From Gordius albopunctatus (Eukaryota): a stretch of DNA of 64,000 bases. Shown here piece by piece: positions 11,089-63,321 of this stretch (position 1 is its first letter; every line of letters starts with the position of its first letter). Below the pieces are notes generated by a model. That model saw nothing but the letters and a program-made list of their open reading frames with translations. It had not been told where the DNA came from and ran no database searches. The position numbers and the translations under genes are program-made. Where the stretch lies: contig OZ193909.1 of assembly GCA_964276515.1 (NCBI GenBank), forward strand, positions 5,022,001 to 5,086,000, read 5' to 3'.

Positions 11089-11965
11089 GAGGGAGACTCT
11101 AAACCTTTTCGGGTTAATATTGGATTACATCAAGGCTCTGCTTTAAGTCCCTTTTTATTTAATATAATTATAGACACGATAACGAGGGACTTTCAAAAGC
11201 CATCGCCATGGTGTATGCTATATGCCGATGATATAGTACTATGCGAGGAAACAAGGGAGAAGGTATTCGAAGAAGCAGAAAAGTGGTCAAAGCGCTTAGC
11301 TGGATATGGTTTAAAGGTTAACGATCGAAAAACGGTATACATGGAAATGAACGGTACAAGCACCCCATCGCTGGATGACCACATAAAGTACCCAAAAGTA
11401 GACAGGTTTAATTACCTCGGCTCTATGCTACATCAAGAGGGAGGTTGCGCAACTGAAATCAATGCCCGGATTCAAAAAGTATGGCTTAAATTGCGAAGTA
11501 TATCCGGTGTAATGTGCGACAAGAAAATGCCAATATGGTTAAAGAGCAAAGCTTACAAATCCATCGTAAGACCGGTGTTACTCTATGGAAGTGAAACATG
11601 GGCATTAAACACCACGGAAGGAAAGCTATTACAAGCCACGGAGATGAGAATGATACGGTGGAGCTTGGGGTATACTAAGCTCGACCATATGACGAATGAC
11701 TTTCTCATGACAAAAATGGGTATTCAACCTATGGCGGACATGATTAACGAAAATCGGCTAAGGTGGTATGGGCATATACTAAGAAGGGACCCGGATGACG
11801 TAAATCGAAAAGTGCTAGACATGAAAATACCGGGGAAGAGAGGAAGAGGACGACCCCGTGTCACGTGGAAAAGGCAAGTCGATAAATTTATGGAAACTAA
11901 AGAGATTCTTCAAGACATGGCACTAACCCGGTCAAGATGGAAGAGACTCATCAAAACAAACCCCA
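11089..11965 (+). mobile_element. RTE-clade LINE, 5'-truncated, open RT/C-terminal frame
   Basis: GLHQGSALSP, YADDIVL, YLGS, LLYGSETW, RLRWYGHILRR, RGRGRPR motifs. Confidence 0.92.
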
Positions 11966-12169
11966 GTCGGCCGGCCCGTAATAAAAATTTAAAAGCCCGG
12001 CCCGGGCCCGTCAAAATCTTAAATTATAAACCCGGGCCCAGCCCGCTAACTTTATACAAAGCCCGGGCCGGGCCCGTAAAATATTTTTATTTTTATTATC
12101 GATATGGCAAACAATATGTTTGTGTTAAAAATGTTAATAAAAATAGTTTAAAAAGAAAAAATTGGTAAT

Positions 12170-15439: not shown

Positions 15440-17185
15440 TGTCAAAAGCGAATAATGGCGCGTACACCGAGATGGCAAACAAACTGGATCATAAAGGGGG
15501 CGATAGGCTTATGTACAAATTGGCCAAGATAAAGGAGAAGAAAGGTCGCGATGTCGGAGTTCTTAAAAAAAGTCAAAAGCGAGAAGGGTCAAACCTTATT
15601 CAAGCCGAAAAAGTGATGGAAAGGATATTTTAAGAAACTTATGAATATTGCAAATTACAAGGATTCCCTTTCCTAAATTGAGTTATATATAAGTATGGTC
15701 GAACTCTTTCAGGAGGATGAAGTTAGGACACAAATGAACTAGATGAAAAAAGGAAAAGCAAATGGCCCAGATGGAATACCTATGGAAGCATTGCTCGGAT
15801 ATCGTGAAGAAGGAGTCACCATCATGACGATCCTCCTTAACAAGATATTGGTAGAAGAGAGAATCCCTAATCAATGGAGAGCAATCACGATTATACCCTT
15901 ATTTTAAGGCAAAGGAGACCCTCAGGACTGTGGCAATTACATAGGTATCAAGCTAACTTGCCACTCCTTGAAGCTTATGGAAAGGATCTTAGTAACAAGG
16001 CTGAAAAACGAGGTGGAAATATCGGCTAATCAATTCGGATTCGTGGCCGGCAAATCCACAATCGACCCAATCTTCGCCCTAAGACAAATGATAGATAAGC
16101 ATGGTGAAAAGAGGAAAGACCTACATATGGTTTTTATCGCCTTGGAGAAAGCTTATGATACGGTCACCCGCGATTTAATATGGTGGTGCCCGAGGAAACA
16201 AAATATCCCTGACGCATATATACGACTTATGAAAAATATTTATGAAGCCTCAAACTCCGTTAGGACGACAGTTGGAGACTTTAAACCTTTTCGGGTTAAT
16301 ATTGGATTACATCAAGGCTCTGCTTTAAGTCCCTTTTAATTTAATATACTTATAGACATGATAACGAGGGGCATTCAAAAGCGATCGCCATGGTGTATGC
16401 TATATGCCGATGATATAGTACTATGCGAGGAAACAAGAGAGAAAGTATTCGAAGAAGCCGAAAAGTGGTCAAAGCGCTTAGCTGGATATGGTTTAAAGGT
16501 CAACGATCGAAAAATGGTATACAAGGAAATGAACGGTACAGGCACCCCATTGCTGGATGACCATATAAAGTACCCAAAAGTAGACAGGTTTACTTACCTA
16601 GGCTCGATGCTACATCAAGAGGGAGGTTGCGCAACGGAAGTCAATTCCCGGATCCAAAAAGGATGGCTTATATGGCGAAGTAAATCCGGTGTAATGTGCG
16701 ACAAGAAAATGCCAATATGGTTGAAGAGCAAAGGTTACAAATCCATCGTAAGACGGGTGTTACTCTATGGAAGTGAAACATGGGCATTAAACACCACGGA
16801 AGGAAAGCTATTACAAGCCACGGAGATGAGAATGATACGGTGGAGCTTGGGGTATACTAAGCTCGACCATATGACGAATGACTTTCTCATGACAAAAATG
16901 GGTATTCAACCTATGGCGGACATGATTAACGAAAATCGGCTAAGGTGGTAGGTGCATATACTAAGAAGGGACCCGGATGACGTAAATCGAAAAGTGCTAG
17001 ACATGAAAATACCGGGGAAGAGAGGAAGAGGACGACCCCGTGTCACGTGGAAAAGGCAAGTCGATAAATTTATGGAAACTAAAGAGATTCTTCAAGACAT
17101 GGCACTAACCCGGTCAAGATGGAAGAGACTCATCAAAACAAACCCCACCAATGTGGGACCAAATAACTGATAAAGAAGAAGAAGA
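15440..17185 (+). mobile_element. RTE-clade LINE, RT region to 3' end, with stops/frameshifts
   Basis: GPDGIP, NQFGF, GLHQGSALSP, YADD, RGRGRPR motifs; (GAA)n tail after TGA at 17170. Confidence 0.93.
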
Positions 17186-21222: not shown

Positions 21223-21966
21223 ATGCCAAGGAAGGTTTCGTCTAGAGTCGCTAATTATAATACCCCCCTTAACAAATATTTCTCCAAGTCCACCTCCCTG
21301 AACCAAATAAATACAGCACCCAACGTACCAATGATTTCTCCTAGCAACAAAGATTCGGTTGCCGCAAAAATTGACAGTAACGCCAGCGAATCAGATCCAA
21401 CGATGACGTTAATCTTGAATCGGCTAGCTGAAATGGATGCAAAAATCGACAGGTACATGCTCGGTAGAAGCGAAGAAACGATCAATGTGGTAAAGAATCG
21501 GCCACATTGGGCGCCGTCCCTGCCGGCGGAGTCTGTGACCATGACCCGCATTAAGTTAGAGACCTTACTGGCCAGCGAAAGAGCAGGAGCATCGAACACT
21601 CCCAGCTCCAATATTGATATTTTGAAACTACGACTTAAAGGCTTAAGTGAGGCATTAGAGACAAACTACTCGATGCCCGCCCATCAGAAACATGAGACGG
21701 AGTTCCTCCTCAGCTTAGGAGATTCCATTAGTGACTACGATAAAACTATCGACAAATTCTCCGAAAGAGTAAAGACGATAGCCATGGCATCATACTATGG
21801 GTGGCAAGCGGTTACGGGGAAATCCAAAGACTGGACCGAAAAAATGGTAATGGGGCAATATACCGAACCGATACAGCTTTTTCGGCCGCCTAATAGATTC
21901 AATGCTCAAAGGAAGAAAGGCGCTTATACAAAAGAGGCGCCTCCGCCTCGGGCGGAACGAACGTAG
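21223..21966 (+). CDS. Gag-like ORF1 of a DIRS-like retroelement (intact, ~247 aa from ATG)
   Basis: Uninterrupted, GC-richer ORF upstream of an RT. ERVKTIAMASYYGWQAV resembles the R-K-I-A...GW-V motif recalled from DIRS/PAT-type Gag ORFs; basic C-terminus. Confidence 0.6.
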   Translation: MPRKVSSRVANYNTPLNKYFSKSTSLNQINTAPNVPMISPSNKDSVAAKIDSNASESDPTMTLILNRLAEMDAKIDRYMLGRSEETINVVKNRPHWAPSLPAESVTMTRIKLETLLASERAGASNTPSSNIDILKLRLKGLSEALETNYSMPAHQKHETEFLLSLGDSISDYDKTIDKFSERVKTIAMASYYGWQAVTGKSKDWTEKMVMGQYTEPIQLFRPPNRFNAQRKKGAYTKEAPPPRAERT

Positions 21967-23043
21967 ATACGTAAGGACGGTAGCGGCGACCCTCGGCTGT
22001 GGTGTTACCCGCCGAGGTCGGCAAGGGATGGTACTATTCCAGCATGGCTTAATAACTACAGAGCCATTGCTAGGAGTATCGCTTTAAACACCTACTCTCC
22101 CGACGATTGCCCGGAGTTGGAGGAACCGATTTATCCTCACGACGCGCCGCTACTCGAACGTACAAATGTGCCGGGAAATCTCCATGACCAATGGACGGAG
22201 GTGGGTATGGATAGCGACGGCGCACCTATCTCATCAGCGAACCGTCCAATATTTTCTCAATCCCCTCTCACCCCTTATCCTCTTTTACACGATTTGATCT
22301 ACCCTTATCAATACGAACGACGATTTTGAAACCCCATCACACGCAATCCCACTTCACTCACAGGATTGCGACCCACAGCTTTAAGCCAAAGATTTCGCGA
22401 AAGGCTATTGCAGACAACAAGGGAAGATATTATGTCCCCCGTTACATAAAGGCTATCCCCCGCGAACACAAATCTTTGGTGGACGAAATTATTCTCAGCA
22501 ATGTTGTCCGTAGCAATTCGGAGGCTATTCCGTCACCCATGTACTTTATCCATAAGAGTGACGGGTCCCCACGGCTGATAGCTGATTTATCCCAAATATC
22601 AAAGAACTTCATTAAATACCCTTTTACATTGAAATCCATTCCCCTAATCGCTTCTTCTTTATCGGATGCACTATTCATGACCAAAATTGATATGAAGGCC
22701 GCCTTTTTCTCTATTCCCCTGGCGGTGGAATTCTCCAAATTCTTTAGCTTCCGGTACAGACGACAGAAGTATTCCTACAAAGTGCTGCCTATGGGGGCCA
22801 GTTTTTCACCCTTCGTACTACAACAAGTTATGATGGACCTATGTAACAAGGCGGTTACAAAGTCTTGATGATATCCTAATATATGGGCGATCCAAAACGC
22901 TAGTCAAGACAGACACTCGGCGATTTTTATACCTGGCCAAATGCTGGAACTTAACTATCAACCACAATAAATCCTCGCTGGAACCACGAACAATTATGGA
23001 CTACCTAGGCATCAATGTTAACCTGGAAACACACACTCTGAAG

Positions 23044-26000
23044 CAGAAACCAGAAATGCCCGGCCCGGCCCGGCCCGTGCCTTAAATTTTAATTTTTGGG
23101 CGAGCCCGGGCGGGCACGCTGATAAGATTCGGGCAATTCGGGCATGCCCAGAATTTTATCAAATTAATTTTCCTTGAAAAAAGAAAAATTCGCTTATAAA
23201 CAATTTTGGGCCATAATAAATTTGACTAGATTTTTTTTCATCGCTTAAATCTTCATTGTACGTTTATATAATGTCCTAATTTCAATTTCTTAAAAATTAA
23301 TTTTTATTTCAAATAAATTAGTTTAACTGGTTTGTCTCAAGATCAAAAATTTTTAATTTTCAGATTATATTATAAAAGAATTAATTGCTATGCAATTTAT
23401 GGGCTCGTTTTTGGTTGTCCGTCGTCCGTCCGTCCGTCGTCCATCCACCAAGTTATTGGCGCCAGCTTTTTTTAAATTAAATTAATATATTGTTTTAACA
23501 CCATTGATAATATGACTTTTTGACCGTCCGAAGGCTACTGACCATTGAAAAAAATTACCATTGGCCAAATAAATCGAAATTTTTTGTTCGTTTTTGAATA
23601 AGTTAACATTGATAATTACCCTATACTTTTTAATAATTTCTATGCAATTTATCTAGTTTTTGGGTTAGAATCCCGGAGTTTTTTTTGACTCTTATGATTG
23701 TTCTTGTTACTATCATTGATAATAAGACTTTTTGGCCGTCCGCTGGCTGCTGACCAATGAAAAAAATGACCATTGGCCAAAATGTGTATCCGAGTTTATT
23801 TTTTCGTTTTTTTTGACTATTATGATTGTTCCTGTTCCTACCATTGCTATTATGACTTTTTGGCCGTCCGCTGGCTCCTGACCGATGGAAAAAATGACCA
23901 TTGGCCAAAATGTGAATCGAAAATATTTTTTTCGTTTTTTTTGACTATTATGATTGTTCCTGTTCCTACCATTGCTATTATGACTTTTTGGCCGTCCGCT
24001 GGCTGCTGACCAATGGAATAAAATGACCATTGGCCAAAATGTGAATCGAAATTATTTTTTCCGTTTTTTTTGACTCTTATGATTGTTCCTGTTCCTACCA
24101 TTGCTATTATGACTTTTTGGCCGTCCGCTGGCTGCTGACCAATGGAATAAAATAACCATTGGCCAAAATGTGATTCGAAAACTTTTTTTTCGTTTTTTTT
24201 GACTATTATGAATTTATATCCACTTTTACCGTGTCCTGGCTGCTGACCAATGGAAAAAAATGACCTTTGGCCAAAATGTGATTCGAAAATTTTTTTTTCG
24301 TTTTTTTTTACTCTTATGAATTTATATCCACTTTTACCGTGTGCTGGCTGCTGACCAATGGGAAAAAATGACCATTGGCCAAAGTGAGCATCAAAATTTT
24401 TTTTCCGTTTTTTTGGCTATCATTGACTTATAGAGTATCTGTTGGTACTGACCAATGCAGAAGAAATGACCATTGGCCAAATTTTTGATTTTTTTAATTA
24501 AAAATTGTTCAAATTCAACCAAAAATTTCTCCCAACAATTCTGCAAATTCTTAAAATTGTGGTGTTTTATAATATAATGTTTGTTAGACCCATAATCACT
24601 AGAGGCCATAAAAACTAATGTAATATTTTTATTTATTCTCAAATGTGATATTTTGTTCATGATTGTTTTTTGCATGTGCTAGTGTTTAGGTTTTCAACAT
24701 TAATATTCTTTCATATACATTTTTACACATTGAATTATTTATTTTAAAGATTACTATATTTTGTTTTTTTGTGTTCTTGCATAAAATTAGGTTTTGTCTT
24801 TCATTTATCTACATTATTAATTGTTTATTAAAATAGGGGTCGGGGCTAGTCGGAGAGGGGCTATTGCTAGCCATTTTTCATTGTGTTTTACAAATGGCAT
24901 GATAAAAAGAAAAAATAATCATATTACATTTGCATTTTCTACATTTTTTATAAAGAAACAATCTTTTTATTGATATGAGTTAGCCTACACTAAAAAAAGT
25001 GAAAACGTCAGAGTTAATTTATGGGCTATGACTAACCCCGGGCACTTTTAAAAAATTTAGGATTTCCATTTTTTTTGAATTTATTTTGTGAAAAAATTAT
25101 TGCTTATTTCCCTCCAAATTTTCTTCCTATATTAAAAATAGTCTTTAAAAATAGACAAGTAAAAATTTGTCTACCTAAATATAAATTAATACAACTGTTT
25201 CCCGTAGAATTTAACTAACCATAAAGCTTCCCCTTCGCTCCCTCTCTCCCCCTTTATGATATTTGGCATATACACTTATTTAGTGCTTCCAACCTTCGTT
25301 TTGCAATATTCACGTAAGTATTTAAAATAGAGAAGGCAATTTTTTTTAATTAAATCGAAAATTTGTATTAATAATTAACTAATTATTTTACATTTAATAC
25401 CCCCCCCCCGCCTATAGGCATTCTCACCCCTTCCCACCTTTCTCGCCCATAAATTGCATAGCAAATATGATACATTTATACGGAGTGTAGATGAGTTCCC
25501 CCTTCCCTCCCCTCCTCCCCTTCCCCCTTCCCACGAGGGCCGAAGGCCCGAGTTTTCTTATTACATTTTTATCGCGTTTAGTTAAATCTTTGCCCTACTC
25601 CATTATGGAAAGGATTGGAGTATTTAAATTTATGTAGTAGCCAAAGCCATTTCGTGCCGTCTAGACTTAAAACAAAGGCTCATGCCATTTTCTAACAATG
25701 CGCATAATTGTAATTCATTTAATTTCTTAACAACTAAAAAAACACGGTGGAAAAATAAAGCAAACAAGTCACATTAAAGTTATTAAAAATTATAACTATT
25801 TTAGGTATACTAAATTAGCAAGGTTTAAAAAAATACTCTTTGCCACCCTGGCGACGAGTGCTGCTAGTGAAAGAAGTTTTTCTATCGGAGGAAGATTAAT
25901 AGAGGAAAGACGCACAAGATTATCCCCGGAAATTATCGACGATATGAATAATAAAATATTGTCGTCTTTGTTTGGATCAATATGCCATTGCTTATTTTGT

Positions 26001-28931: not shown

Positions 28932-31781
28932 ATTACGACGCTCAAGATGATCAAGTATGAATCCAAAACAATTAATTGCTATTTGATTTAAGTTAATGAT
29001 TTAAGTTTTTCTACCTTTATTTAACTTAAAATAACACGTTAACGAAACATTTTATGGTTTATCGAGTTCAATTAAAACTTATTTGCCTTTATGTTAAATA
29101 TTTTTATTTATTTAAATTTATAGCCCGAGCCCTTAATTGGCAAAAGGAACGGACTAATACCCAATCTCACTGATCTCGGTAAGAATCTCAATAACCTACC
29201 TAAATATTATTTTTTTTTCGCATTCATATATTAGATCAAATCACGCCTTTTTTAAAGTTTGACAGCAATCTCAAGTCACACGTTGAAGCCACTAAAAATG
29301 GCAAAGTCATTTTACAGTGCCGCGTGTCCGCCTCACCGCCGGCCATTATTTATTGGCAGTTTTATAAGAGCCAAACGCCCCTCGACGAAAGAAATAGGAT
29401 CACTCGTGGCCGATTAGAAACCTGGAACGATAACGGCTTCCCAAGGATAGGCAATAGCGTGGAGTCTTATGTTGGACAAGGGGACGAAAATCACGTGTTT
29501 GACGTCGAATCGGGTATTCATCGTGGCTACAGGAAGAGGAGGGAAACTTTTAAAGACAGCGAAGACTATAACGACAATAGCCCACTTCCCGAAGATGACA
29601 GGAGAGGGTATTCTCCTCGTAAGCTTGGTTTGAGCGTTACAAAATCTAGACTGGAAATTGATTGCTTAGACTACGATGATGCAGGAACCTATATCTGTGT
29701 GGCTGAAAACGCTGCTAAAATTATCAAACAAAGCAGCACCTTAAAAGTTAAAGGTAATATTCATCGCGCGCTTTAATTTACCATATTCCATATATAATCC
29801 GACAATAACTTAATGCTGGTTATGTTTTTAAACGTTTATAGACAATGGAAAACCCAAGTGTGAGCCAACCACTGGTGTTAAGAGTATGCAAAATATAATA
29901 TATTGCCCTGTATCATACATTTTGCATTTAATCAATGCCTATTGTATAATAGCCCAATAATAAATTTGTCCTTTTGTCTAAGCAAACTGGATAAACTATT
30001 ATATATTTTTACATTACAGTTCGTCCAAACTTCTATCTTTCAAATCTAAAAAATGTGCCCAAAGTTGATATCATACCAGCTAATGGCAAAAGGGAGAGGC
30101 CTAAAATAAGTATAAACAATTTTACCTGAAATATGATATCGTAGATTGTACTATCGAATAAATGCTATCAATCGCAACATTTTAAACAAAATTATATTAA
30201 AAATCATAGTTCACAGTGTTACGCTAATGTGTCTTATGTAATGTAATATATGTTAAAGAATATTTATTATTTAAAAAAGCGCCAGCCAGAATTTACATGT
30301 GGACCGAAAACCGAATCGATAATCAAGGTACAAATGTTCGCATCTTTTGTAGATCATCTGGTGTGCCAAAACCTACGATTGCTTGGCTTTCACCATTGGG
30401 CACAACATTACATAACAATAATAAATACAAGGTAAGGGATTTTACATCAGTCTGATCATGTGAATTCATATAAATTAAGTAGGGAAGAGCGGGGCTAGTC
30501 GTAGCCCGGGGTTACTCTTATCTTTGTAATTATTTTTAAAAATAATAATGATATATTATTAAAATTTAAACCATATGTGTGTATGTTTTCATAAGGTATA
30601 AGTAAAAAATTTTTGTTTAGAAAAAAATAAAATTAAAAATTTTTATGGATGAAAAACGATTTTTCGGGGCTATTAGTAGCCTTGACAAAGTTTTGTATTT
30701 TGCACATAAAAATTTTTTGGCTCTATATTTTGGAATATTTTAAGTTTTATCTTATAAAGGGATATTTTTATATAAAAACCGCCTAATGATTAAATTTTTA
30801 TTCGCAATATAACATGTTCAATTATTAATTGTTCATAAAAATAGGGGTCGGGGCTAGTCAGAGAGGGGCTAGTTATAGCCATTTTTCATTGGGCCTTACA
30901 AATGAAAAAATTTAAAAAACAAAAATCTTGTTTATAATTCAACTTAGTGTAATTAGGAATAGAAATAGACTATGATTATACTTTAAAAAACGATTAGAAG
31001 TTTTTTACATAGCAGAATATGTCTTTTAGGTGTACAAGTCAGATTGCCATCTTGACCCTTTTTTTATTTTTATTATATAAAATACAATAATATTACATTT
31101 AAATTTTCTATGTTTTATATAATGTAACAATATTTTTATTGATTTAAGTTAACATACACTATTAAGATGTTAAAACTTCAGGGTTAATCTATCCCCTGAA
31201 CAGAGCTATAACTAACCCCGGGCACTATTTAAATTTTTAGGATTTTTGATTTTTTGAACTCAATTTATAAAAAAACTATACGCTCTTTTTTCTCAATATT
31301 CTTTCCTATAATAGAAAGAGACTATAAAAATGTATTCCAATAAAAAAATTATAAAAATCTTCATTAGTTTTTTTAAAGCGGTTTAATTTTTTATGGCTAT
31401 TTAGGCCCCGTATATGGTATTACCTAAATTATAGCTTCTTAAGACAGTTTCATTGACTTTTATGTCTTAAATTCTTACAGTAATATCCTTTTGTTTGGTA
31501 TAAAGTAGACTCTTTGCATTAGAAAGAAGGTTAAATAATCAAAAAACAAACTTCAAAAATATCTATGATTTGAGACATATAATAAATTTATAAACGTATG
31601 CACTATGATTTTATTTTAGCTGCTGAAAAATGGTGATCTATATATTAAAAATATCAGCTGGGAAGATGATATGGGATTGTACATTTGCCTCGTGAAGAAC
31701 AAATACGGCTCAGATCATAAAGAAGCATTTTTATATCCATTAAATAAAAATGGAGATGATGAGGAATTGGAACTTCTTTGA
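28932..31781 (+). CDS. ImpL2: ImpL2/ZIG-like secreted two-Ig-domain insulin-binding protein (5' signal-peptide exons uncertain)
   Basis: Phase-compatible GT-AG exons 28932-28954, 29124-29178, 29235-29753, 29842-29883, 30280-30431, 31620-31781. Ig1 LQCRVSASPPAIIYW...LGLSVTKSRLEIDC..DAGTYICVA; Ig2 PARIYMW..GTNVRIFCRSSGVPKPTIAW..LLKNGDLYIKNISWEDDMGLYIC..N.YGSD..EAFLYP, matching the ImpL2 C-terminal pattern (GDL.I..I.WEDMG.Y.C...N..G.D...F.YP). Confidence 0.88.
30480..31426 (+). mobile_element. TA-flanked MITE (TAGGGGAGACCGGGGC family, pogo/Tc1-like) in the last ImpL2 intron
   Basis: Highly similar in inverted orientation to 59344-60288; repeated GGGGCTAGT motifs. Confidence 0.8.
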
Positions 31782-34589: not shown

Positions 34590-36130
34590 TAATTTGGAAA
34601 GGGAATACAAGGAATAGGACAAGAAGAAAAGCTAATTATTGGGGTGCTTCAAAACGCTAACGTAGGGAAAGATCGCATCAGGTATGAACGCAATCATGGA
34701 AGCTATGGGCATGGCCTAAGAACAAAGAAGGGGAAAATATTCTCCAAGTATCCATCGTTAACACCTATTTTCAAAAACGCCAAGATCATATTGTAATGTA
34801 TAGAGGTGGGAAGCATTTTAGTTAAATTGGCTATCTGCTCATATAGCGAAAGGACTTATGGAGTATCGAAATTGCAAAGAATACCGAGAGAAGAAATCGC
34901 CAGGCAATATCGTCCACTTGTGATGGATCTTGAAAGAAATTTCCCGAAATAAGAAGGGTTTATGAACCTAAAATTCGATGAGAAACTCTAAAGGATACGT
35001 CAACGAACGATAAATTTCATCAAAAAGCCTCCTCACTCCGAGGTGCTAGGAGTTGCAAAGAAATCTAAATGACGATTGGGAGACGCTAATTAAGGACATA
35101 AAGAAAACAGCGATACGAGTTATAGGACAGACCAAAGGAAGTAAAGTTATGAATAGGGAACTATGGTAGTGGCCAGTGGGAAAGGAAGCAAAGTTATGAA
35201 TAGGGAACTATGGTAGTTCGGATTATCAAGAGTGGGGAAGCAAAAAAAGCCATGAAAAAAGCCGTTGCAATAGCGATGAATGGCGCGTACATCGAGATGG
35301 TAAACAAGCTGGACCATAAAGGGGGCGGCAGGCTTATGTACAAATTGGCCAAGGTAAGAAAGAAGAAAAGTCGTGATGTCGGAGTCCTTATAATTGTCAA
35401 GAGAAGGATCAAACCTTATTCAAACCGAAGGAAGAGATGGAAAGGTATAAATGATATTTCAAAAACTTATAAATTTCGCAAATAACAGAGATTCTTTTAT
35501 AGGTATTGAACAAAACTTAAGTATGGTCTAATTCTATCAGGAGGATAAAGTTAAGACAGAAATAAAGAATATGCAAAAAGAAAAAGCTAATGGCCCAGAT
35601 GAAAATTCTATGGAAGCATGGGTTGGATATTGAGGAGAAGGAGTCACGATTATAGCGAAACTCTTTAACAGTATATTAATAGAAGAGCAGATTCCTAATC
35701 AATGGAAAGAAAGCACGATTATAGCTTTATTAAAAGGCAAAGGAGACCCTCAAGTGTTGAAATTCCAAGGTATCATTCTAATATGCTACTTTATGATGTT
35801 TGTAGAAAGGTTCTTAATAACAAGGCTAAAAAGCTGGGGGGAGGTATCTGCTAACCAATTCTGATGTGTGGTCGGCAAATCCACAATCGACCCAATCCTC
35901 GCGCTAAGACAAATGATGGATAAATATGAGAAAAAGAGAAGAGGCCTAGATATGGTCTTTATCTACTAGGACAACGACCTCGTGTCACTTAGAAAGGGCA
36001 AGTCGACAAAGTTATGAAATCTAAGAAAATTAATCAAGACATGGAACTTACCAGATCAAGATTGGAGAAATTCATCAAAAAAACCAAACCCCACGACTAT
36101 GGGATCAAATACTTGATAAAGAAGAGAAGA
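34590..36130 (+). mobile_element. Degenerate RTE LINE (endonuclease end, RT N-terminal part, internal deletion, 3' tail)
   Basis: LIIG..NANVG..HGSYGHG and NTYFQKR endonuclease remnants; homology to 15440-16140; jumps to the 3' end with TGATAAAGAAGAGAAG. Confidence 0.8.
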
Positions 36131-40284: not shown

Positions 40285-40450
40285 CATGGGCATAGCCAAG
40301 GGGGCAGGGAGGGGCAGCTGCCCCCCCCCCTTTAAATCAAAAATTTTGTCCGAATTTATTAGAATTATGGCTAATTCAAAAAATGATCATTATACCCCTC
40401 GGGTAAATCATTATTGCCCCCTTCTAATTCTAATGCTGGCTACGCCCATG
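40285..40450. mobile_element. Short hAT-type MITE copy
   Basis: CATGGGCATAGCCA...TGGCTACGCCCATG termini. Confidence 0.75.
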
Positions 40451-41202
40451 TTTATTATTGATACTTAAACCATTCAATTTTGGGCAAGGAGATTTTATTA
40501 AATACTTGATCAATACTTTTGTTTCAACTATTACGGGCGATTGATTGATGGCTCGAGACTAATTTCATACCAAAGTCGCCTTTTAAATAGGTTTTTACCT
40601 GTTTCGCATGAGTTTTTCAAGTAGTGCATTCAATATAATATGATTTTCAAAAAATCGCAAAATATTGATGTGACTAATTGGCAATGACGTAAATTTAATC
40701 ATAATCATCGATTCAAATGTGGCAATTAAAATTTCGTATAAATGTCAGCATTTGATGTATATATTATTTCGCTAAATTTAATCAATTTTCGATAGAATTA
40801 GGTATTAAGTAATCAATCGAAAACCTGCATCGAGGAATGGGGATACAATGCCTAATACGACGTTATTTAAGTTATAGCCTCATGCGTCAAAGACTTTTTT
40901 AATCCCATTAATTCTCGATCTGTCGCTTTACGCGAGGGACAGGCTTTGGGGTCTATTTCATTATATTAACCTTAAAATTAGATATAAAACATGGCCCAAA
41001 TAACTCCTACCCTTGCCTCCTAATTTTATTCCTTTTTGTCATCCCTATAAAACACACATTAAAATTCTTTATTGTCAAAGCTTTGGCCCAAAAATATTTT
41101 TGCCTTTATTCAAAAACGTCCTTCAAATCATCGCATTTAGGCGCACCTTTTTTTGTCGTCCACGAATTAAGTCGGTCTCTGTTTAGTAATTGAGCATCCG
41201 AC

Positions 41203-41210
41203 TATATAAA
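41203..41210 (+). promoter_or_regulatory. Candidate TATA box of insulin-like gene 1
   Basis: TATATAAA about 65 nt upstream of the ATG; weak evidence in AT-rich DNA. Confidence 0.25.
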
Positions 41211-41272
41211 TCAATTATTGCTGCCATTTAGCCGATAATTTATAATTATTTGTAATATATAACCGTTATAAA

Positions 41273-42752
41273 ATGGCTCGATCCATCAATGCTAAATCAT
41301 CCTCGGGCGCTATAATGCTGGTAATTCTAATGATTTTAGCCCTAAATTTGGGATTGGGCTCGACTTTTACACTGCATAATATGGGTTTCGGCAAGAGAAT
41401 GCAATTTGTAGCTGATTCCAACAGGGTTTGGCAAGAATTCACGGATTGCGTAAACAATATCAACTATGTGCTCCCTATGGTCTGTAAGTACCAAGACGGC
41501 AAGAACTTAGATAAAGGTAAATATCATATAAAAATATTCTCAATATTGCGACTTTGTATTAAAGTTTTATAGAAAAAATGCTCAAATAAAAGGATAAATA
41601 TTTATTTATATTTCAGATTATAAATTATTAAGTGGGTCCAAGGGCCAAAATATAAAACACCTTGCGTGAAATAAAGTTTTGCAGTCATTCGTATAAAATT
41701 CATATAAATATAAATTGTAGTGGAATGAAATCATTTATTCTGTTAAGCTGCTATTAAATGTTTGCAGTAAAAGATTGTCAAGGGGAATACAGAAAAAACT
41801 GACTTTTTTTTAGCCATAAATCAAGTAAGGGGAAATGTGATTGTTTAATTAAGAAGAAAACATAATCCCTCTTCTTAAGCCAATAAGCTTAAAAGGTCAT
41901 ATCACAATTTTTTTTGTGAAATTACATATTTTTTTGAATTGAACATTTCAAATAAAACGCCCTAAAGCATTTTTTATTTTGACCAATGTCAAATTATTGA
42001 CATCTATGTTAAACTTTTTGAAATTTGTTTGATAGTCAATACATTAATATTGATAGAGCTAAGACAATATATTTGTAAACCCTTGCAATTAGTCAACCTA
42101 AATGTGAAAATTAATTTGTGGTGATTTTTTCCTTTCTAAATTCCCATGATTTTAGACATTTACCCAGTTGAGTGGGGTTAATAAACTAATAACTAATAAG
42201 ATAGGCATTGCCGTACCCAGCTTTGTAATTAGAGGGGGGGGCAATAATGATTTAGGGATGGGCAAAATGAACATTTTTTGAAATTTTAGCCATCATTTTA
42301 ATAAATTTACACAAATTTTTCGATTTAGAGGGGGTAGCCGCCCCCCCCCTGCACCCCCCCCCCCTGGCTACGACAATAAAAATGGGAGCTTTTTTGCAGA
42401 TTTTTGTCAACAATTCAGATAAAAATAAAATATACAATGACATTTATATTATGTAAGATCGGGATCATGGTTCTTGACGTCGTCATGGCTTAAAACTTAT
42501 ACTAGTTTGCACAATTTATTAATATTTACGCTCATTTTAGTGGGTCCTAACAATTTGAAGGATTTATTGATATCGGAAAATTCATTGGAAGCTGAGGATA
42601 AAAATGTAAAGGATAGTAATTACATAGCAGCTCCTAGGGCTTCCACTTCGCAGGGTTTGGGGGAAGAACACACATCGGCAACTAAAAATATACTAAAGAA
42701 ATGCTGCATGGACAACTGCGATTTGGATTTTCTAGCCAAACTTTGCAACTAA
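41273..42752 (+). CDS. Insulin-like peptide precursor 1 (151 aa) with N-terminal amidated-peptide module
   Basis: Exons 41273-41516 and 42541-42752 (GT-AG, phase 1). Hydrophobic signal peptide, FTLHNMGF-GKR, B-type C-x11-C (CVNNINYVLPMVC), A-type CC-x3-C-x8-C (CCMDNCDLDFLAKLC); AATAAA at 42782. Confidence 0.92.
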
Positions 42753-43507: not shown

Positions 43508-44300
43508 TAGGGGGACCGTGGCTACTTTACCCATAAAAATTTAAGTAGCGTTGAAAAAAAACGAAAAAATATTTTTTCAAATTTTTTGTTGGAATATATT
43601 TTTAAGTCCTATTTTAATTTAGGGGGGAAAAAATTTGGAGGTAGTAAATAAGTAATAGTTTTTCCACAAATTAAGTCTAAAAAACATAAATCTTAAAAAT
43701 TTTAAAAATGCCCGGGGCTAGTTCTTATCTTATTAGTGTATGCTAACTAAAATCAATAAAAGGATTGTTTCATTATAAAAAATATAGGAAATGCAAATGT
43801 AATTTGATTGCATTTTATATAAAACAAATAAAAAAGAGTCAAGATGACACTCTGACTTAATTACACTTAAAAGACAGATCCTAGAATGGAAAAAACTTTT
43901 AGTAGGTACTATTTTAACGTATACTCTTAGTCTATTTCTATTCAAAATTATAATATTTTTTGTTTTTTGCCATTTGTAGGACGCAATGAAAAATGGATAG
44001 CAATAACCTCTCTACGACTAGCCCCGACCCCTATTTTTATAAACAATTAATATTTTAACATGTTATAGTGCGGATAAAAATTTAATCGACGGGCTTTGTA
44101 TAAAAAATACCCCTTTATAATATAAAACCTTAATTAGTCAATAGCCCCAAAAAATCGTTTTTCCTCTATAAAATTTTTTACTTATACCTTATAAAAAAAT
44201 ATACGTATGGTTTAAATTTCTATTATATATCATTATAATTTTAAAAATAAATTACAAATATATTAATAACCCCGGGCTACAACTATCCCCGGTCCCCCTA
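43508..44300 (-). mobile_element. TA-flanked MITE (diverged copy) between the two insulin-like genes
   Basis: TAGGGGGACCG...CGGTCCCCCTA termini; body homologous to 59344-60288. Confidence 0.75.
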
Positions 44301-45098: not shown

Positions 45099-45855
45099 AT
45101 GCACACTAGACAAAACCTAAAATCTCTCCTATGGGTTTTGGCCTTTAGTCTAACTCTGTTTAGTTTTAATCAAGGCTTTACTCTACACAATATGGAATTT
45201 GGAAAGAGGATGATGCTTCAACGCAATTCAATAATGAGTAGGGAATGGGAGGATCTGATTGTATGCGTGAACAAGGTGAATTACTTATTAAAGACCATTT
45301 GCCAACAAGAGCAAAGACCCAATTCCTACGGGCAAGGTAAATTATGCTACGTTACATTTTAATCTCGGCGCAAAATTTATAGCTTCCAAATGTAAAGAAT
45401 ATCTTTTAACAATTCTAAAAAGTTTTTTTGTATTATTTCGTCAAACAAAGCTTTTCCATACTTTTTATATATAAGGCCAAATAGCTATAATTTATAGACT
45501 TTATCTTAATAATAATTTAAATTTTAAATTTTATGTTAATTAGTGCACTTTGATCATCAAATGTGTAAAGCAAATTGAAAAGTCTAATAGCTATAAAATA
45601 TCGTCTATAGTACAAACAATCGAGACACATTCACATAAAACTTTAATTATTTTCAAACTTGCTGTTTGCATAAAAAGTGATATTTGACATAAACTTATTT
45701 TTCGATCAGGAGCTTTTCCGCAGCCAAATTATTCCGTATTAAGCCAAGGACCTATTAGCGACTACCAAGATATGGATAGATCATTGAATTTCCTCAAACA
45801 ATGTTGTAACCGTGATTGTGGATTCGAATCGTTATACAGTGTTTGTAAATATTAA
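45099..45855 (+). CDS. Insulin-like peptide precursor 2 (127 aa) with N-terminal amidated-peptide module
   Basis: Exons 45099-45336 and 45710-45855 (GT-AG, phase 1). Signal peptide, FTLHNMEF-GKR, CVNKVNYLLKTIC (C-x11-C), CCNRDCGFESLYSVC (CC-x3-C-x8-C). Exon 2 is absent from the ORF track. Confidence 0.92.
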
Positions 45856-54519: not shown

Positions 54520-56400
54520 TTCGAATTTATCTTCTTAATTATCATAACATGTCCACTTGCCCCTTCCACCTAACAAAAGTTCGTCCTCTCCTCTCTTTCT
54601 TGGCACACCACCAACCAGTTTGGCCGATTTATTGTTATCAAGTTCGCCATAGGTTGAATTTTTTATCCTGAGACATTCATTCGTAGAGTTGTTAAATCGC
54701 TAACTTTCTTCAAACTCCAGACGCGAGCACGCACACTGAGTTGCTTAATATGCGCGTTAGCACAATATGTGCTCGCTGTTCGGTGCCTTGGGCAGAACAG
54801 CAGCATATAAAAATGCTCGAGGACCGAGCAGAAACTCGAGCAGATTGTGGCTGGAGTTGAAGAAAGTTAGCAATTTAACAACTCTATTCATTCGTCATAT
54901 GGTCGAGCTTAGTTTACCCCAAACTCCACCGTTGCACTCGCATTTCTATGGCTTGTTGTAACACCTTTTATTCCGTAGATTTTAATGAGCGTGTTTTTTT
55001 TCGTAAAGTAACACCGGATTTATAATGGATGCTTTGCTCTCAAACCATGGCATCCTTGTGGCACATTATACCGGGCATACTTTGTCATTTAGTCATACTT
55101 TTTGAATCTGTGCTTTGACTTCTTTATCTCCCTCTTGATGTTGAGCAGAGGTATGTTAAGCAGCCCTTTGGGTACTTTAATTGGTCATCTAGCGATATGG
55201 TGCTTGTAACGTTACTCTTCACGTGTACCGGTTTTCGATTGTTGAATTTTTTGACCACTTTTCGGCTTCTTGGAATACTTTCTTCTTTGCCTCTTCGTAG
55301 TTACTATATCATCGCCATCTAGCTTACACCTTTTGGATGTCTTTCGTTATCGTCATAAATATGTTGAAAAAAGGACTTAGAGCAGATTCTAAATATAATT
55401 CAATTTTAACCTTAAAAGGTTTAGAGTCTCCAACTGTCGTCCTAACGCACGAATTTGAGGCTTCATAAATATTTTTCATAAGCTTTACATATGCGTCAGG
55501 GATATTTTGTTTTCTCGTGTACCACCATATTAAATTGCGAAGGACTTTGCCATCAGCTTTCTCCAAGTCGATAAAGACCATGTGTAGATTTCTTTTCTTT
55601 TCCCCATATTTTTATCCTATCTCTTAGTGCGAAGATAGGGTTGATGGTGGATTAGCCAGCCACATATCCGAATTGATTAGCCGATATTTCCACCTCATTT
55701 TTTAGCCTAGGCATCTTTCCATAAGTTTCAAGAAATGGCAAGTTATTGATACCTCTTAATTGCCACACTTCTGAGGGTATCTTGGCCTTTGAATAACGGT
55801 ATAATTATGCTTGTTCTCAAATGATGGCCCTTCTTCAAAATCTTTGTTAAAGAGGTTCGTCATTGTCGTAACTCCATCTTTTGAGCCTACACATGTTTCC
55901 ATAGGAATTCCATCTGGGTCATTGGCTTTACATTTTTGCATCTTGTTCATTTGTGTCCTAACTTCATCTTATTTAAAGCATGTACAAAACATATTTTGGC
56001 TCATTTTCGGGAAGTGAATCTTTGTAATTTGCACAATTTATAAGTTTCCTAAAATATTCTTTCCATCACTTGTTTCAGGTTGAATAAGATTAATTTTCTG
56101 ACTATTTTAAGGACTTAGACATCGCGATTTCTCCTCTCCCTCATCTGGCTATTTTTATTATAAGCCTGTCGCCCACTTTATGATCCAGTATCTTTGCCTT
56201 CTCGATATACGCAGCATTCTTAACTATTGTAACGACCTTTTTCGCGACTCACCCTATATTCTTGATAACTCTCAGAATTTTTAGATTTTTTCCGCCGTCT
56301 AGGTAGAATTTTTTTAGATGAAATCTCTAACCGTTTGATCCCACCTCCATAATTCCCTAACCAAAGCTTTGCCTCCTTTCATCTGCCCTGACACATGTGT
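54520..56400 (-). mobile_element. Degenerate RTE LINE
   Basis: Minus-strand remnants MVFIDLEKA, DPDGIP, SALSPF homologous to 15440-17185. Confidence 0.8.
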
Positions 56401-57529
56401 CACCGTTTTCTATCAGTAAGCCTCTCTCATTCCTCGTTTGTGTTTCACTTCATTTTATGGTAGGTACAAGTGGAAGTGGAGTCTTTTTGGTGGTATTTAT
56501 CGCCTATCTATGTTTTGTTCAACAATTAATCAAATTCAAGATCAGAGATAATGTAAATCTCAATTTCAAAATTTTATTATTTTTGAGTGGGCCTCTAAAA
56601 CAGACCTGACGCCAGGACTTAGGGCCGTTGCTAGTAGTGTTAAATTTTTTTGTTTTTACAAATTTGGCAACTTTTTTTGGAAAAGTGTGCACTCTTTTCT
56701 GATTATAAAAACTTGTCTTTGCTTAACCACGATGGGTTATCTAATTAACTTGATTTTTGCCTCCCATGTTTACAATTAATCTCCTTTTTCCGCTGTTAAT
56801 TGAGATTTCTTTAAGATCAAAAGTTAAAATTTTTGAACAGAAAACTAATGATAATGATTAAATATAATATTACGAAAAATTTAAAAAAAAACTATATAAG
56901 TTAGGCAATTAGAGAATATTTTAAGCAAATGCAGATGACAAAAGACTTGGAAATTCGCAGTTTTTCTAAAATAAATATTAAAACTAGATGAAAGTGTTCG
57001 GCAAATAATTAAAGAAGTATTTTCTGAAGAGCGACGATTTATAATTTTCAAATTAACATCCCACCCCCTTTTTTTTGTTGTTTTTTTTACTACTAACATA
57101 CTAATCCATTTTTATATATACACTAGATGAACCCGGCAAACGTTGTTTTGCCATTTACCGGGTGTATTAAATTATGTTGGAATTTTAGGGCATATATGAT
57201 GATAAAGCGGTTATTGAAGTAAAAATAAAGTTTGATAATTTTTAAACGGTCCAAGGCCCAGGCCCACCCAAGAGAGAAAACCTGGCCCCATGCCCCCCCC
57301 CCCAAGGGAAAAATCTTTGGCGCCCTGGCCCTTCAAGCAATATTTTTAAATTTTTTGTAATTAAGAAACAATATCATAATTATTTCTTTCTGAATAAAAC
57401 TTTTAATTCTGAACTTAATAATGTCCGAAGAACTGAGATATATCAACATTTATTGGCACTTTGTTAAAAGTATTTGCATTTTTGCGCAAAAAATGACAAA
57501 ATTAGATTTTTCATTTATTTAGCCACCAC

Positions 57530-58812
57530 ACAAATGAGCAAGATGCAAAAAGGAGAAGCGAATAGCCCAGATGGACTACATGAACGCATTGCTCGGATGC
57601 CGTGAATAAGGAGTTACGACCATGACGGACCTCTTTGACAAGATATTGGTAGAAGAGCGAATTCCTAATCAATGGAGAGCAAGCACGATTATACCCTTAT
57701 TTAAGGGCAAAGGAAACCCTCAGGACTGTGTCAGCTACAGAGGTATCAAGCTAATATTCCACTACCTGAAGCTAATATAAAGGATCCTATTAACAACACT
57801 AAAAAATGAGGTGAAAATATCTGCTAACCAAATAGGATTGTGGCCGGCAAATCCACAATCGACCCAATCTTTGAATTATGAAAAATAATGGATAAATATG
57901 GTGAAAAGAGAAGAGACCTGCTGCATTTGGTCTTTATTGACTTGGAGAAAGCATCTGACAGAGTCCCTCGCGATTTAATATGCGGGTGCCTGAGAGGACA
58001 CAATATCCCTGACGCATATATACGGCTTCTCTTCTTCTTTATCAGTTATTTGGTCCCACATTGGTGGGGTTTGTTTTGATGAGTCTCTTCCATCTTGACC
58101 GGGTTAGTGCCATGTCTTGATTAATCTCTTTAGTTTCCATAACTTTATCGACTTGCCTTTTCCACGTGACACGGGGTCGTCCTCTTCCTCTCTTCCCCGG
58201 TATTTTCATGTCTAGCACTTTTCGATATACGGCTTATAAAATATATTTACGAAGCCTCAAATTCTGGCGTTAGGACGACAGTTGAAGACTCTAAACCTTT
58301 TCGGGCGAAAATTGGATTGCCAACAAAGATCAGTTTTGAATCCTTTTTCATTTATAATATAGTTATGGACACGATAACGAAAAACATTCAAAAGCCATCG
58401 CCATGGTGTATGCTGTGTGCCGATAATATAGTACTATGAGAAGAAATAAAGGAGAAAGTATTCGAAGAAGCCGAAAAGTGGTCAAAGCGCTCAGCTGGAT
58501 ATGGTTTAAAGGTCAACGATAGAAAAATGATATGCATGGAAATTAACGGTACAGGCAGCCTATCGCTGGATGACCATCTAAAGTACCCCAAAAGTAGACA
58601 GTTTTACGTACCTCGGCTCGATGCTACATTAAGAGGGGGGTTGCGCAACAGAAGTCAATGCCCGGATCCAAAAATGATGCTTAAATGGCGAAGTATATCC
58701 GGTGTTTTGTGTGACAAGAAATGCCTATGTTTGAAGAGCAAAGCATACAAATCCATCTTAAGACCGGTGTTACTCTATGGAAGCGAAACAAGGACATTAA
58801 ACACAACGGAAG
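57530..58812 (+). mobile_element. Degenerate RTE LINE RT region, 3'-truncated
   Basis: VFIDLEKA, VLLYGSET; homologous to 15730-16800. Confidence 0.85.
58029..58224 (-). mobile_element. Young RTE 3' fragment inserted antisense into an older RTE copy
   Basis: Close match to the reverse complement of ~16988-17185; flanked by direct repeat ATATACGGCTT (58018-58028 and 58225-58235). Confidence 0.88.
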
Positions 58813-59343
58813 AAAATATAAAAAAATTTAATTAGCCATAAAAACGGCAATTATGACAATTGTCACCGAGATAAGTTGACAAATTTAAGTTTTATGTTTT
58901 AAATAATTTTATGACACCTTTACCTGCAAATGCAAGTTAACGTTTAAAATATTTCATTAGCTCTAAAAGTGACAATTATGAATTGTCACCAACCATGGTG
59001 AAAAAAAACAAAAGAAATTATTTTTATTTATTTTATAACCATTAATCGATTAATAAATTATTTAGAAAATATTGATTATCATTTGTGGGTATATTATTGA
59101 AATTGGTATAATTAGCATTCTATACCAGCTGCCTACTTGTAAGCTATGATTAAGTTTGTTAAAAACCATGTTTAGTATCAAACAACCCTGCTCGATACTA
59201 GGTTTGTTTCAAGCCACTCTGCCAAATACCAGGTTAGTTAGTATTTAACCCAACCAGCAACTGAGCTGCTTTAATAGGCCAGTGCTTTTAACCGGGTTAT
59301 TTATAGCATGTGCGTGCTATGCTTGATTGAAATGGGCGAGATG

Positions 59344-60288
59344 TAGGGGAGACCAGGGCCTAAATAGACATAAAAAATTAAGCCACTTTAAAAAAAAATA
59401 ATCAAGATTTTTATAATTTTTTTATTGGAATACATTTTTATAGTCTATTTCTATTATAGGAAAGAAAATTGACAAAAAAGAGCGTATAGTTTTTTTTATA
59501 AATTGAGTTCAAAAAAATCAAAAATCCTAGAAATTTTAAAAGTGCCCGGGGTTAGTTATAGCTCTGTTCAGGGGATAGATTAGCCCTGACGTTTTAACTT
59601 CTTAATAGTCTATGCTAACTTGAATCAATAAAAATATTGTTACATTATATAAAACATAGAAAATTTAAATGTAATATGATTGAATTTTATATAATAAAAA
59701 TAAAAAAAGGGTCAAGATGGCAATCTGACTCAAGTACACCTAAAAGACATATTCTGCTATGTAAAAAAAACTTTTAGTCGTTTTTTTAAGTATAACCATA
59801 GTCTATTTCTATTCCTAATTACACTAAGTTGAATTATAAACAAGATTTTTGTTTTTTAAATTTTTTCATTTGTAAGGCCCAATGAAAAATGGCTATAACT
59901 AGCCCCTCTCTGACTAGCCCCGACCCCTATTTTTATGAACAATTAATAATTCAACATGTTATATTGCGAATAAAAATTTAATCATTAGGCGGTTTTTATA
60001 TAAAAAATATCCCTTTTAAGATAAAACTTAAATTAGTCCAAAATATAGAGCCAAAAAAATTTTATGTGCAAAATACAAAATTTTGTCAAGGCTACTAATA
60101 GCCCCGAAAAATCGTTTTTCATCCATGAAAATTTTAAATTTTATTTTTTCTAAACAAAAAATTTTTACTTATACCTTATGAAAACATACGGATATGGTTT
60201 AAATTTTAATAATATGTCATTATTATTTTTAAAAATAATTACAAAGATAATAGTAAACCCGGGCTACGACTAGCCCCGGTCTCTCCTA
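59344..60288 (-). mobile_element. TA-flanked MITE, full length
   Basis: TAGGGGAGACCAGGGC ... GCCCCGGTCTCTCCTA termini; inverted near-copy of 30480-31426. Confidence 0.85.
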
Positions 60289-60834: not shown

Positions 60835-63321
60835 AACTCGGGCCTTCGGCCCTCGTGGGAAGGGGGAAGGGGAGGAGGGGAGGGAAGGGGGAACTCATCT
60901 ACACTCCGTATAAATTTATCATATCTGCTATGCAATTTATGGGCGAGAAAGGTGGGAAGGGGTGAGAATGCCTATAGGCGGGGGGGGGGGTATTAAATGT
61001 AAAATAATAAGTTAATTATTAATACAAATTTTCGATTTAATTAAAAAAAATTGCCTTCTCCGGGAAGCCCCTCTCCGACTAGCCCCGACCCCTATTTTAA
61101 TAAACAATTAATAATGTAGATAAATGAAAGACAAAACCTAATTTTATGCAAGAACACAAAAAAACAAAATATAGTAATCTTTAAAATAAATAATTGAATG
61201 TGTAAAAATGTATATGAAAGAATATTAATGTTTAAAACCTAAACACTAGCACATGCAAAAAACAATCATGAACAAAATATCACATTTGAGAATAAATAAA
61301 AATATTACATTAGTTTTTATGGCCTCTAGTGATTATGGGTCTAACAAACATTATATTATAAAACACCACAATGTTAAGAATTTGCAGAATTGTTGGGAGA
61401 AATTTTTTGTTGAATTTGAACAATTTTTAATTAAAAAAATCAAAAATTTGGCCAATGGTCATTTCTTCTGCATTGGTCAGTACCAACAGATACTCTATAA
61501 GTCAATGATAGCCAAAAAAACGGAAAAAAAATTTTGATGCTCACTTTGGCCAATGGTTATTTTTTCCCATTGGTCAGCAGCCAGCACACGGTAAAAGTGG
61601 ATATAAATTCATAAGAGTAAAAAAAACGAAAAAAAAATTTTCGAATCACATTTTGGCCAAAGGTCATTTTTTTCCATTGGTCAGCAGCCAGGACACGGTA
61701 AAAGTGGATATAAATTCATAATAGTCAAAAAAACGAAAAAAAAGTTTTCGAATCACATTTTGGCCAATGGTTATTTTATTCCATTGGTCAGCAGCCAGCG
61801 GACGGCCAAAAAGTCATAATAGCAATGGTAGGAACAGGAACAATCATAATAGTCAAAAAAAACGGAAAAAATAATTTCGATTCACATTTTGGCCAATGGT
61901 CATTTTTTTCCATTGGTCAGCAGCCAGGACACGGTAAAAGTGGATATAAATTCATAACAGTCAAAAAAAAACGAAAAAAAAATTTTCGAATCACATTTTG
62001 GCCAATGGTCATTTTATTCCATTGGTCAGCAGCCAGCGGACGGCCAAAAAGTCATAATAGCAATGGTAGGAACAGGAACAATCATAATAGTAAAAAAAAA
62101 CGAAAAAAATATTTTCGATTCACATTTTGGCCAATGGTCATTTTTTCCATCGGTCAGGAGCCAGCGGACGGCCAAAAAGTCATAATAGCAATGGTAGGAA
62201 CAGGAACAATCATAATAGTCAAAAAAAACGAAAAAATAAACTCGGATACACATTTTGGCCAATGGTCATTTTTTTCATTGGTCAGCAGCCAGCGGACGGC
62301 CAAAAAGTCTTATTATCAATGATAGTAACAAGAACAATCATAAGAGTCAAAAAAAACTCCGGGATTCTAACCCAAAAACTAGATAAATTGCATAGCAATT
62401 ATTAAAAAGTATAGAGGCATAGGCCCTTGTAAGGGAGGGCATAGGGTAATTATCAATGTTAACCTATTCAAAAAGGAAAAACGAAAAATTAGGATTTATT
62501 TGGCCAATGTTCATTTTTTCATTGGTCAGTAGCCAGCGGACGGTCAAAAAGTCATATTATCAATGGTATTAACAAGAACAAAATATTAAATTAATTAAAA
62601 AAATAAAAATTTTGCCCTCTCCGGGATTCGAACTTACATTAAATAGAGGCATAAGCCTTTGGAGGGGAACAGGGAACCATATAAATAGAGCCATAGGCCC
62701 TTGTAGGGGAGGGCATAGGGTAATTATCAATGTTAAACTATTCAAAAACGAAAAATTAAAAATTTCGATTTATCTGGCCAGTGGTCATTTTTTCATTGGT
62801 CAGTAGCCTGCGGACGGTCAAAAATTCATATTATCAATGGTATTAACAAGAACAATATATTAATTTAATTTAAAAAAAAATAAAAATTTTTGTCCTCTCC
62901 GGGTCTCGAACCATCAATTTAGAACGTTCGCCGGGATTCAAACCCACATTAAATAGAGGCATAAGCCTTTGGAGGGGAACAGGGAACCATATAAATAGAG
63001 CCATAGGCCCTTGTAGGGGAGGGCATAGGGTAATTATCAATGTTAAACTATTCAAAAACGAAAAATTAAAAATTTCGATTTATCTGGCCAGTGGTCATTT
63101 TTTCATTGGTCAGTAGCCTGCGGACGGTCAAAAATTCATATTATCAATGGTATTAACAAGAACAATATATTAATTTAATTTAAAAAAAATAAAAATTTTT
63201 GTCCTCTCCGGGTCTCGAACCCGCAACCTCCAGGTCGGGAAGCTGGTGTAAATAACTTGGTGGACGACGGACGGACGGACGACGGACAACCAAAAACGAG
63301 CCCATAAATTGCATAGAAATT
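60835..63321 (-). mobile_element. DINE-1/Helentron-like element, second long copy with expanded arrays
   Basis: Inverted near-copy of 23383-25554: stem-loop at ~60840, subTIRs at ~60926 and ~63301, monomer array ~61450-62330, extra ~310-bp duplication at ~62620-63220. Confidence 0.82.

Follow-up and report, generated by a model that had tools for sequence, protein, structure and literature searches.

A conserved front peptide with an amidation signal in two insulin-like precursors of the horsehair worm Gordius albopunctatus

Two insulin-like precursors of the horsehair worm Gordius albopunctatus carry, ahead of their B domain, a short front (F) peptide that is followed by G-K-R, and by our comparison of the sequences no other part of the precursor is as constrained as this motif. 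We give an even chance to the reading that the precursor gives rise to an amidated front peptide, acting on its own receptor (probably a GPCR), and to a single-chain insulin-fold protein. What appears to be new here is the strong conservation of a front peptide with an amidation signal; that an N-terminal peptide can be cut from an insulin precursor was known already.

Two tandem genes and their place in the insulin family

The window analysed, 64,000 nucleotides of contig OZ193909.1 (assembly GCA_964276515.1, positions 5,022,001 to 5,086,000 of the forward strand), holds two genes in tandem on the + strand, with products of 151 aa (gene 1) and 127 aa (gene 2; Table 1). Both precursors share the same order of parts: signal peptide, F-T-L-H-N-M-(G/E)-F, G-K-R, a B extension of 16-18 residues, C-x11-C, a C domain of 38-60 residues and CC-x3-C-x8-C. 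The splice junctions were inferred from the DNA by picking the homologous donor and the strongest-looking acceptor, with seven in-frame choices listed for gene 1 and three for gene 2. A six-frame HMM and tblastn search revealed no third gene copy in the 64-kb window, where only the four known exons scored. Contigs from two sequencing runs of one study span genes 1 and 2, with the variants K72R and S127A of gene 1 in one run and an unchanged motif in both; these contigs are possibly the window's own source and hence are no independent support for the genes. In both runs the summed contig depth at 41107-41708 is a little higher than for the main contig, to which a further partly matching sequence, for example a repeat or paralog, may contribute.

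Table 1. Predicted features of the two insulin-like genes, in positions of the window
Feature	Position	Strand	Description
Gene 1 putative TATA-like element	41203..41209	+	70 nt 5' of ATG; pattern match only
Gene 1 exon 1 (coding)	41273..41516	+	From signal peptide through front peptide, G-K-R and B domain into C domain; open frame with GT donor at 41517
Gene 1 signal peptide	41273..41365	+	h-region at about residues 13-25 (hydropathy); predicted cut after residue 29 or 31
Gene 1 front (F) peptide core F-T-L-H-N-M-G-F, predicted amidated	41366..41389	+	6/8 invariant in three sequences
Gene 1 G-K-R, predicted amide donor and convertase site	41390..41398	+	
Gene 1 B domain	41399..41485	+	16-residue N-terminal extension, then C-x11-C
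Gene 1 intron	41517..42540	+	Phase-1 GT-AG, within C domain; high-copy repeat near 42234-42334
Gene 1 exon 2	42541..42752	+	C and A domain CC-x3-C-x8-C; first Cys 42702, stop 42750-42752
Gene 1 putative poly-A signal AATAAA	42782..42787	+	30 nt 3' of stop; pattern match only
Gene 2 exon 1 (coding)	45099..45336	+	Signal peptide, front peptide, G-K-R, B domain
Gene 2 front peptide core (E replacing first G) and G-K-R	45177..45209	+	
Gene 2 intron	45337..45709	+	Phase-1 GT-AG, C domain; frame also kept by acceptors 45713 and 45749
Gene 2 exon 2	45710..45855	+	C and A domain; first Cys 45802, stop 45853-45855

The window is AT-rich (GC 24-41% in 2-kb bins) and gene-poor, with many retroelement fragments. 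Broken copies of a non-LTR retrotransposon (RVT_1), 70-96% alike and presumably RTE-like, lie at 11092-12168, 15443-17147, 35254-35974, 54888-56243 and 57528-58835. At 21223-22868 a 247-aa ORF without a Pfam family precedes a fragment of a reverse transcriptase (RVT_1, E 1.4e-11); we take this element to be of DIRS or LTR type. Two inverted element copies (23468-24862 and 61066-63221) are 95% alike over 1187 nt and contain internal tandem repeats of ~100-130 nt, and a ~900-nt interspersed repeat is present in three copies (30480-31408, 43528-44155 and 59356-60288), one of which separates the insulin-like genes. Short MITE-like repeats with G/C runs, found just 5' of gene 1 (40290-40450) and in its intron (42234-42370), are related on opposite strands and have a very high copy number in the sequencing contigs. 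A 241-aa ORF at 3287-4012, unmatched in Pfam up to an E of 1, is possibly a transposon remnant.

The six cysteines follow the pattern C-x11-C / CC-x3-C-x8-C in the three sequences available, those of genes 1 and 2 and that of a homologue from Gordionus presented below. A phase-1 intron interrupts the C domain of both genes in the window, a trait described in sections of PMC8286064 as characteristic of all insulin genes. The Pfam family Insulin (PF00049) matched exon 2 of gene 1 (E 6.5e-4, 21.1 bits) and the Gordionus protein (E 9.8e-4), both matches lying at 19-21 bits and under the 23-bit cut-off, and exon 2 of gene 2 gave no Pfam match by itself. When an exon-2 profile was compared with the PDB, the top match was an unrelated ribosomal protein, 11 of the 13 matches were insulins, IGFs or insect ILPs (E 0.15-2.2) and one more had an E of 0.86; the weak A-chain matches include IGF, insulin, DILP2 and bombyxin. 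In the ESM Atlas, the top three clusters for the Gordionus protein (scores 0.90-0.91) have PF00049 in 49-90% of their members. An AlphaFold model from three sequences reached a mean pLDDT of 58.9, with residues 1-31 under 50, and fold searches with this low-confidence model of the full precursor gave no meaningful match in Foldseek and a best Z of 5.8 in VIA-align. The assignment to the insulin family thus draws on the cysteine pattern, the intron, the sub-threshold Pfam matches, the weak A-chain matches and the language-model neighbours, and we regard genes 1 and 2 as two old paralogous insulin-family genes.

The insulin part retains the hydrophobic core positions. In insulin numbering, B8 is Val, B12 is Asn and A19 lacks a Tyr; given the roles of these residues, the insulin part fits a classical RTK agonist poorly.

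Constraint on the front peptide and a homologue in a second horsehair worm

The motif reported in the earlier note, F-T-L-H-N-M-G-F-G-K-R, is indeed encoded at 41366-41398 (+), and its counterpart in the paralog (45177-45209) has E for the first G. The same note had counted six synonymous differences among the 11 codons, and this count is exact (ACA/ACT, CTG/CTA, CAT/CAC, TTC/TTT, GGC/GGA and AGA/AGG); the remaining codons comprise one replacement (GGT/GAA, two bases) and four identical ones. Between the paralogs, pN/pS is 0.06 in the motif, 0.31 in the B core, 0.40 in the A core, 0.55 in the signal peptide and 0.85 in the C domain. These ratios are to be read with a pS that is saturated in every region (0.73-1.04); pN itself is 0.06 in the motif versus 0.31-0.63 elsewhere. 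The amidation Gly is unchanged despite a synonymous change in its codon, synonymous sites being saturated. The flanking DNA of the two loci shows no similarity (best blastn E 0.005, 36 nt), which together with the saturated pS rules out a recent duplication or a gene conversion of the paralogs.

A protein search with a profile built from both first exons (E up to 0.001) returned a sole match among 1,835,955,588 proteins, CAK9300383.1 of the horsehair worm Gordionus sp. m RMFG-2023 (E 5.7e-11). Its identity to exon 1 is 48% (gene 1) and 32% (gene 2), and to exon 2 it is 33% and 43%, respectively. F-T-L-H-N-x-x-F-G-K-R is retained in this protein, the two variable positions being T-D, and the motif is thus conserved beyond the window (3/3 sequences, two species). 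Just 14 residues precede the motif in the Gordionus gene model, whose true N-terminus may be missing. As the search profile contained the motif, orthologues without it could be missed. The protein searches yielded no second paralog from Gordionus. Word-index protein searches confirmed 0/1, 1/41 and 1/168 (92-2000 aa) candidates, the match always being the same Gordionus protein, and they revealed no multi-copy stand-alone precursor of the front peptide, which is weak evidence. In a metagenome scan, 0/164 pattern matches were confirmed; the front peptide matches no Pfam family, and a PDB sequence search with exon 1 gave chance matches only.

In the three-way alignment, 9/11 columns of the motif are invariant (6/8 in the peptide and 3/3 in G-K-R), compared with 1/31 in the signal peptide, 2/16 in the B extension, 2/60 in the C domain and, among non-Cys columns, 3/11 in the B core and 2/15 in the A core (together 5/26). 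The motif differs from the non-Cys B and A core with a Fisher p of 6e-4, or 0.012 once cysteines are counted, and the peptide alone differs from the non-Cys core with a p of 0.007; with three sequences, all of these values are post hoc, because the motif was chosen for looking conserved and a motif-containing profile led to the Gordionus protein. The best other non-overlapping run of 11 columns has five invariant ones, against nine in the motif. The boundaries are abrupt, conservation beginning at F and ending after R, an outline that would fit that of a mature peptide. The insulin parts of the paralogs have diverged, with 7/19 residues of the A core and 4/16 of the B extension identical, but the B core, where 7/13 are identical, is not strongly diverged. 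These conservation figures describe three sequences from two species, and as judged from codons and alignment the motif is under strong purifying selection.

Predicted processing of the precursor

Signal cuts were ranked with a von Heijne matrix whose columns all sum to 161. By this matrix, the top-ranked cut of gene 1 falls after G29, two residues before F (giving a 10-mer), and the cut directly before F is second; that of gene 2 falls after S22, four residues before F (a 12-mer), the cut directly before F being penalised by N at -3; and that of the Gordionus model falls after T16, inside the motif (after F-T). The earlier note had the peptide start directly after the signal peptide, and this cut is second-ranked in gene 1 but ranks first in 0/3 sequences, while the (-3,-1) rule would allow cutting after F-T in 3/3. 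Any of the ranked cuts keeps the C-terminal H-N-x-x-F-G-K-R whole. The front peptide would accordingly be 6 to 12 residues long with an uncertain N-terminus, F being favoured as the functional one by the sharp start of conservation there. The MH+ computed for the amidated 8-mer is 965.466 (gene 1), 1037.487 (gene 2) or 993.479 (Gordionus), and for the 6-mer it is 717.350, 789.371 or 745.363, respectively.

Prohormones are processed by a PC2-type cut after KR, trimming by carboxypeptidase and conversion of Gly to an amide by PAM, so that X-G-K-R gives X-amide. The sequence features of an amidated neuropeptide are all found here: signal peptide, X-G-K-R and a conserved C-terminal aromatic residue. 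The K-R after the motif is the only KR/RR in the precursors of genes 1 and 2, and the basic residues near the A domain are KK right before CC in gene 1 and just an R-x-R in Gordionus. As dibasic pairs are missing around the C domain, the insulin part is likely to remain single-chain, a point that had been missed earlier. A classical two-chain insulin was rejected, its C-peptide dibasic sites being missing (no KR/RR past the front site in genes 1 and 2).

In the reading that we prefer, signal peptidase and the single K-R site would cut the precursor to yield a short front peptide, which would be amidated at its Phe. Front peptide and insulin-fold protein would be stored and secreted together; the partner of the former would be a rhodopsin-type GPCR, and the insulin part would use a separate receptor, an insulin RTK or an LGR. 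As a precedent, EGL-3/PC2 cuts nematode F peptides at KR/RR and an integral B-A chain remains (sections of PMC3978837), and nematomorphs and nematodes are grouped as Nematoida (passages of PMC6454755 and PMC4685585).

Alternative readings and comparison with known precursors

The hybrid neuropeptide-insulin precursor put forward in the earlier note gains from the G-K-R after an aromatic residue, from the purifying selection and from the motif in a second species, but the novelty suggested for its layout is overstated. Release of a functional N-terminal peptide is known (sections of PMC3978837 and 10.1101/336750, and for a crab of PMC13329902), and the architecture can no longer pass as possibly undescribed. 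The closest layout is that of the C. elegans beta-class (INS-3, -4, -6, -7 and -9), which in sections of PMC3978837 and 10.1101/336750 has a signal peptide, an F peptide that is functional once released, KR/RR and an uncleaved insulin chain. In contrast, the horsehair worm precursors have six Cys without the extra disulfide (eight Cys), a C domain of 38-60 residues and an F peptide that is very short, highly conserved and ends in G-K-R. Like the beta-class, genes 1 and 2 and Gordionus have, ahead of the B domain, an N-terminal peptide that ends in KR/RR or RxxR, and Pfam Ins_beta matches the A part of gene 1 only, below cut-off. With six Cys and a long C domain they are not beta-class members, despite the nematode F-B-A layout.

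It is possible, if somewhat doubtful, that the target of the released peptide is the insulin part or its receptor, the peptide serving as a cofactor for folding, sorting or potentiation and the amide just stabilising it. In the sister phylum, INS-4 activity needs its F peptide in trans; this F peptide, the only one tested, is a cofactor for the insulin it comes with and is inactive by itself (sections of 10.1101/336750), and position and KR processing in C. elegans are identical (sections of PMC3978837). The INS-4 F peptide fails on INS-10, however, which its authors read as sequence specificity (sections of 10.1101/336750), whereas here the peptide is near-constant across diverged insulin parts, and the main text of PMC3978837 and of 10.1101/336750 never mentions amidation. 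A near-constant peptide beside diverging insulin parts would fit one external partner better than docking to a cognate insulin.

We consider it unlikely that the motif stays on the B chain as a conserved N-terminal F-domain binding an LGR, in the manner of dilp7 and arthropod relaxin, since an invariant G-K-R separates motif and B domain in 3/3 sequences. One of the top three ESM Atlas clusters of the Gordionus protein is a 'putative Insulin-like peptide 7' (0.90), the B extension has an S-x-R-(W/Y) element with a loose likeness to the dilp7 F-domain, and B8 is Val rather than the Gly of RTK ligands. Sections of PMC8286064 also give dilp7 and arthropod relaxin a conserved sequence before the B chain, a long B extension and a phase-1 C-domain intron, as found here; the F-domain, thought in dilp7 orthologues to bind an LGR, differs in being proposed to stay on the B chain. 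By eye, against six orthologues and one 'relaxin' row (the first 12 of 37 places in the PMC8286064 supplement), one W was found here (Y in Gordionus) and no W-E-E. The additional phase-2 intron of dilp7 is absent, both genes having a single coding intron, and an intron loss is possible. Orthology to dilp7 was rejected on current evidence, its four hallmarks (W-x3-W, the A-chain W-E-E, KR around the C domain and the phase-2 intron) being missing.

That the segment is a mere conserved pro-piece or protease recognition site, discarded once processed, is highly improbable: insulin-family precursors often have N-terminal pro-segments with dibasic ends (Daphnia, crab, echinoderm multinsulins), but the examples compared vary, whereas here the segment is the most constrained part (pN/pS 0.06), residues 5-9 upstream of KR included.

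The locust IRP copeptide is likewise a short peptide between signal peptide and B chain that is cut at a basic site; it was not found in our literature search. The crab ILP precursor-related peptide has the same position and a basic-site cut, but the sections of PMC13329902 that describe it indicate neither amidation nor a conservation greater than that of the insulin core. Among the first 8 of 23 G-K-R and the first 8 of 24 G-R-R places in supplement 3 of PMC8286064, Amphiura multinsulin-4 has an N-terminal pro-segment ending in G-K-R ahead of the B domain, and Acanthaster multinsulin-4 has G-R-R before the B region, not conserved among the paralogs shown there. The Amphiura segment differs in its ~22 residues, in the lack of G-K-R in paralogs 10 and 11 and in the presence of two-chain sites. 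These two cases imply that the amidation signal found here is not unique, and the Amphiura paralogs illustrate that a G-K-R in this position can be incidental, a counterpoint to a receptor of the peptide's own. F-G-K-R occurs twice in the supplement portions of PMC7357564, neither time preceding a B chain. No parallel to an amidated, strongly conserved F peptide was found in the literature searched, outside which most subscription literature lies, and the motif strings led to no relevant paper there. The main text of two nematomorph genome preprints mentions neither insulin nor neuropeptide, no inventory of neuropeptides for this phylum turned up in the literature searched, and the portions of the nematomorph RFamide staining literature covered (PMC6454755, PMC4685585) contain nothing on amidation.

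Outside the insulin family, other precursors pair an amidated peptide with a second domain, and the front peptide resembles none of the vasopressin-neurophysin, GnRH/AKH and luqin families by eye or by Pfam. In these three single-copy precursors with a Cys-rich tail, signal peptide, short amidated peptide and G-K-R are joined to a disulfide-bonded companion domain; here, by contrast, the companion shows the cysteine pattern and intron of insulin. To our knowledge, and by eye, none of the allatostatin-A-like nematode peptides, MIP (W-x6-W-amide), CCK/sulfakinin, allatotropin and AKH fits well either.

Going further than an amidated peptide co-released with an insulin-fold protein, we advance as tentative and rather doubtful the proposal that in horsehair worms F-T-L-H-N-x-x-F-amide, acting through its own GPCR, has taken over as the main signal of the insulin gene, the insulin fold being largely a carrier or co-hormone, neurophysin-like. 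It builds on the near-invariant peptide and on an insulin part without the classic receptor-contact residues or C-peptide cleavage sites.

Independent signalling has long been suspected for the C, E and F peptides cut from insulin precursors, but most of them are conserved poorly. A front peptide with an amidation signal and under selection stronger than that on the hormone core is an unusually clean test case for such precursor-peptide signalling. A role of the front peptide in host manipulation is speculation. If the reading of an amidated peptide with its own receptor is true, it would show a new neuropeptide arising inside an existing prohormone and coupling fast GPCR to insulin-type signalling; if the insulin fold has become largely a carrier, a neuropeptide family would have been born within an insulin precursor, in a phylum of host-manipulating parasites. 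The front peptide offers a first handle on peptide signalling in Nematomorpha.
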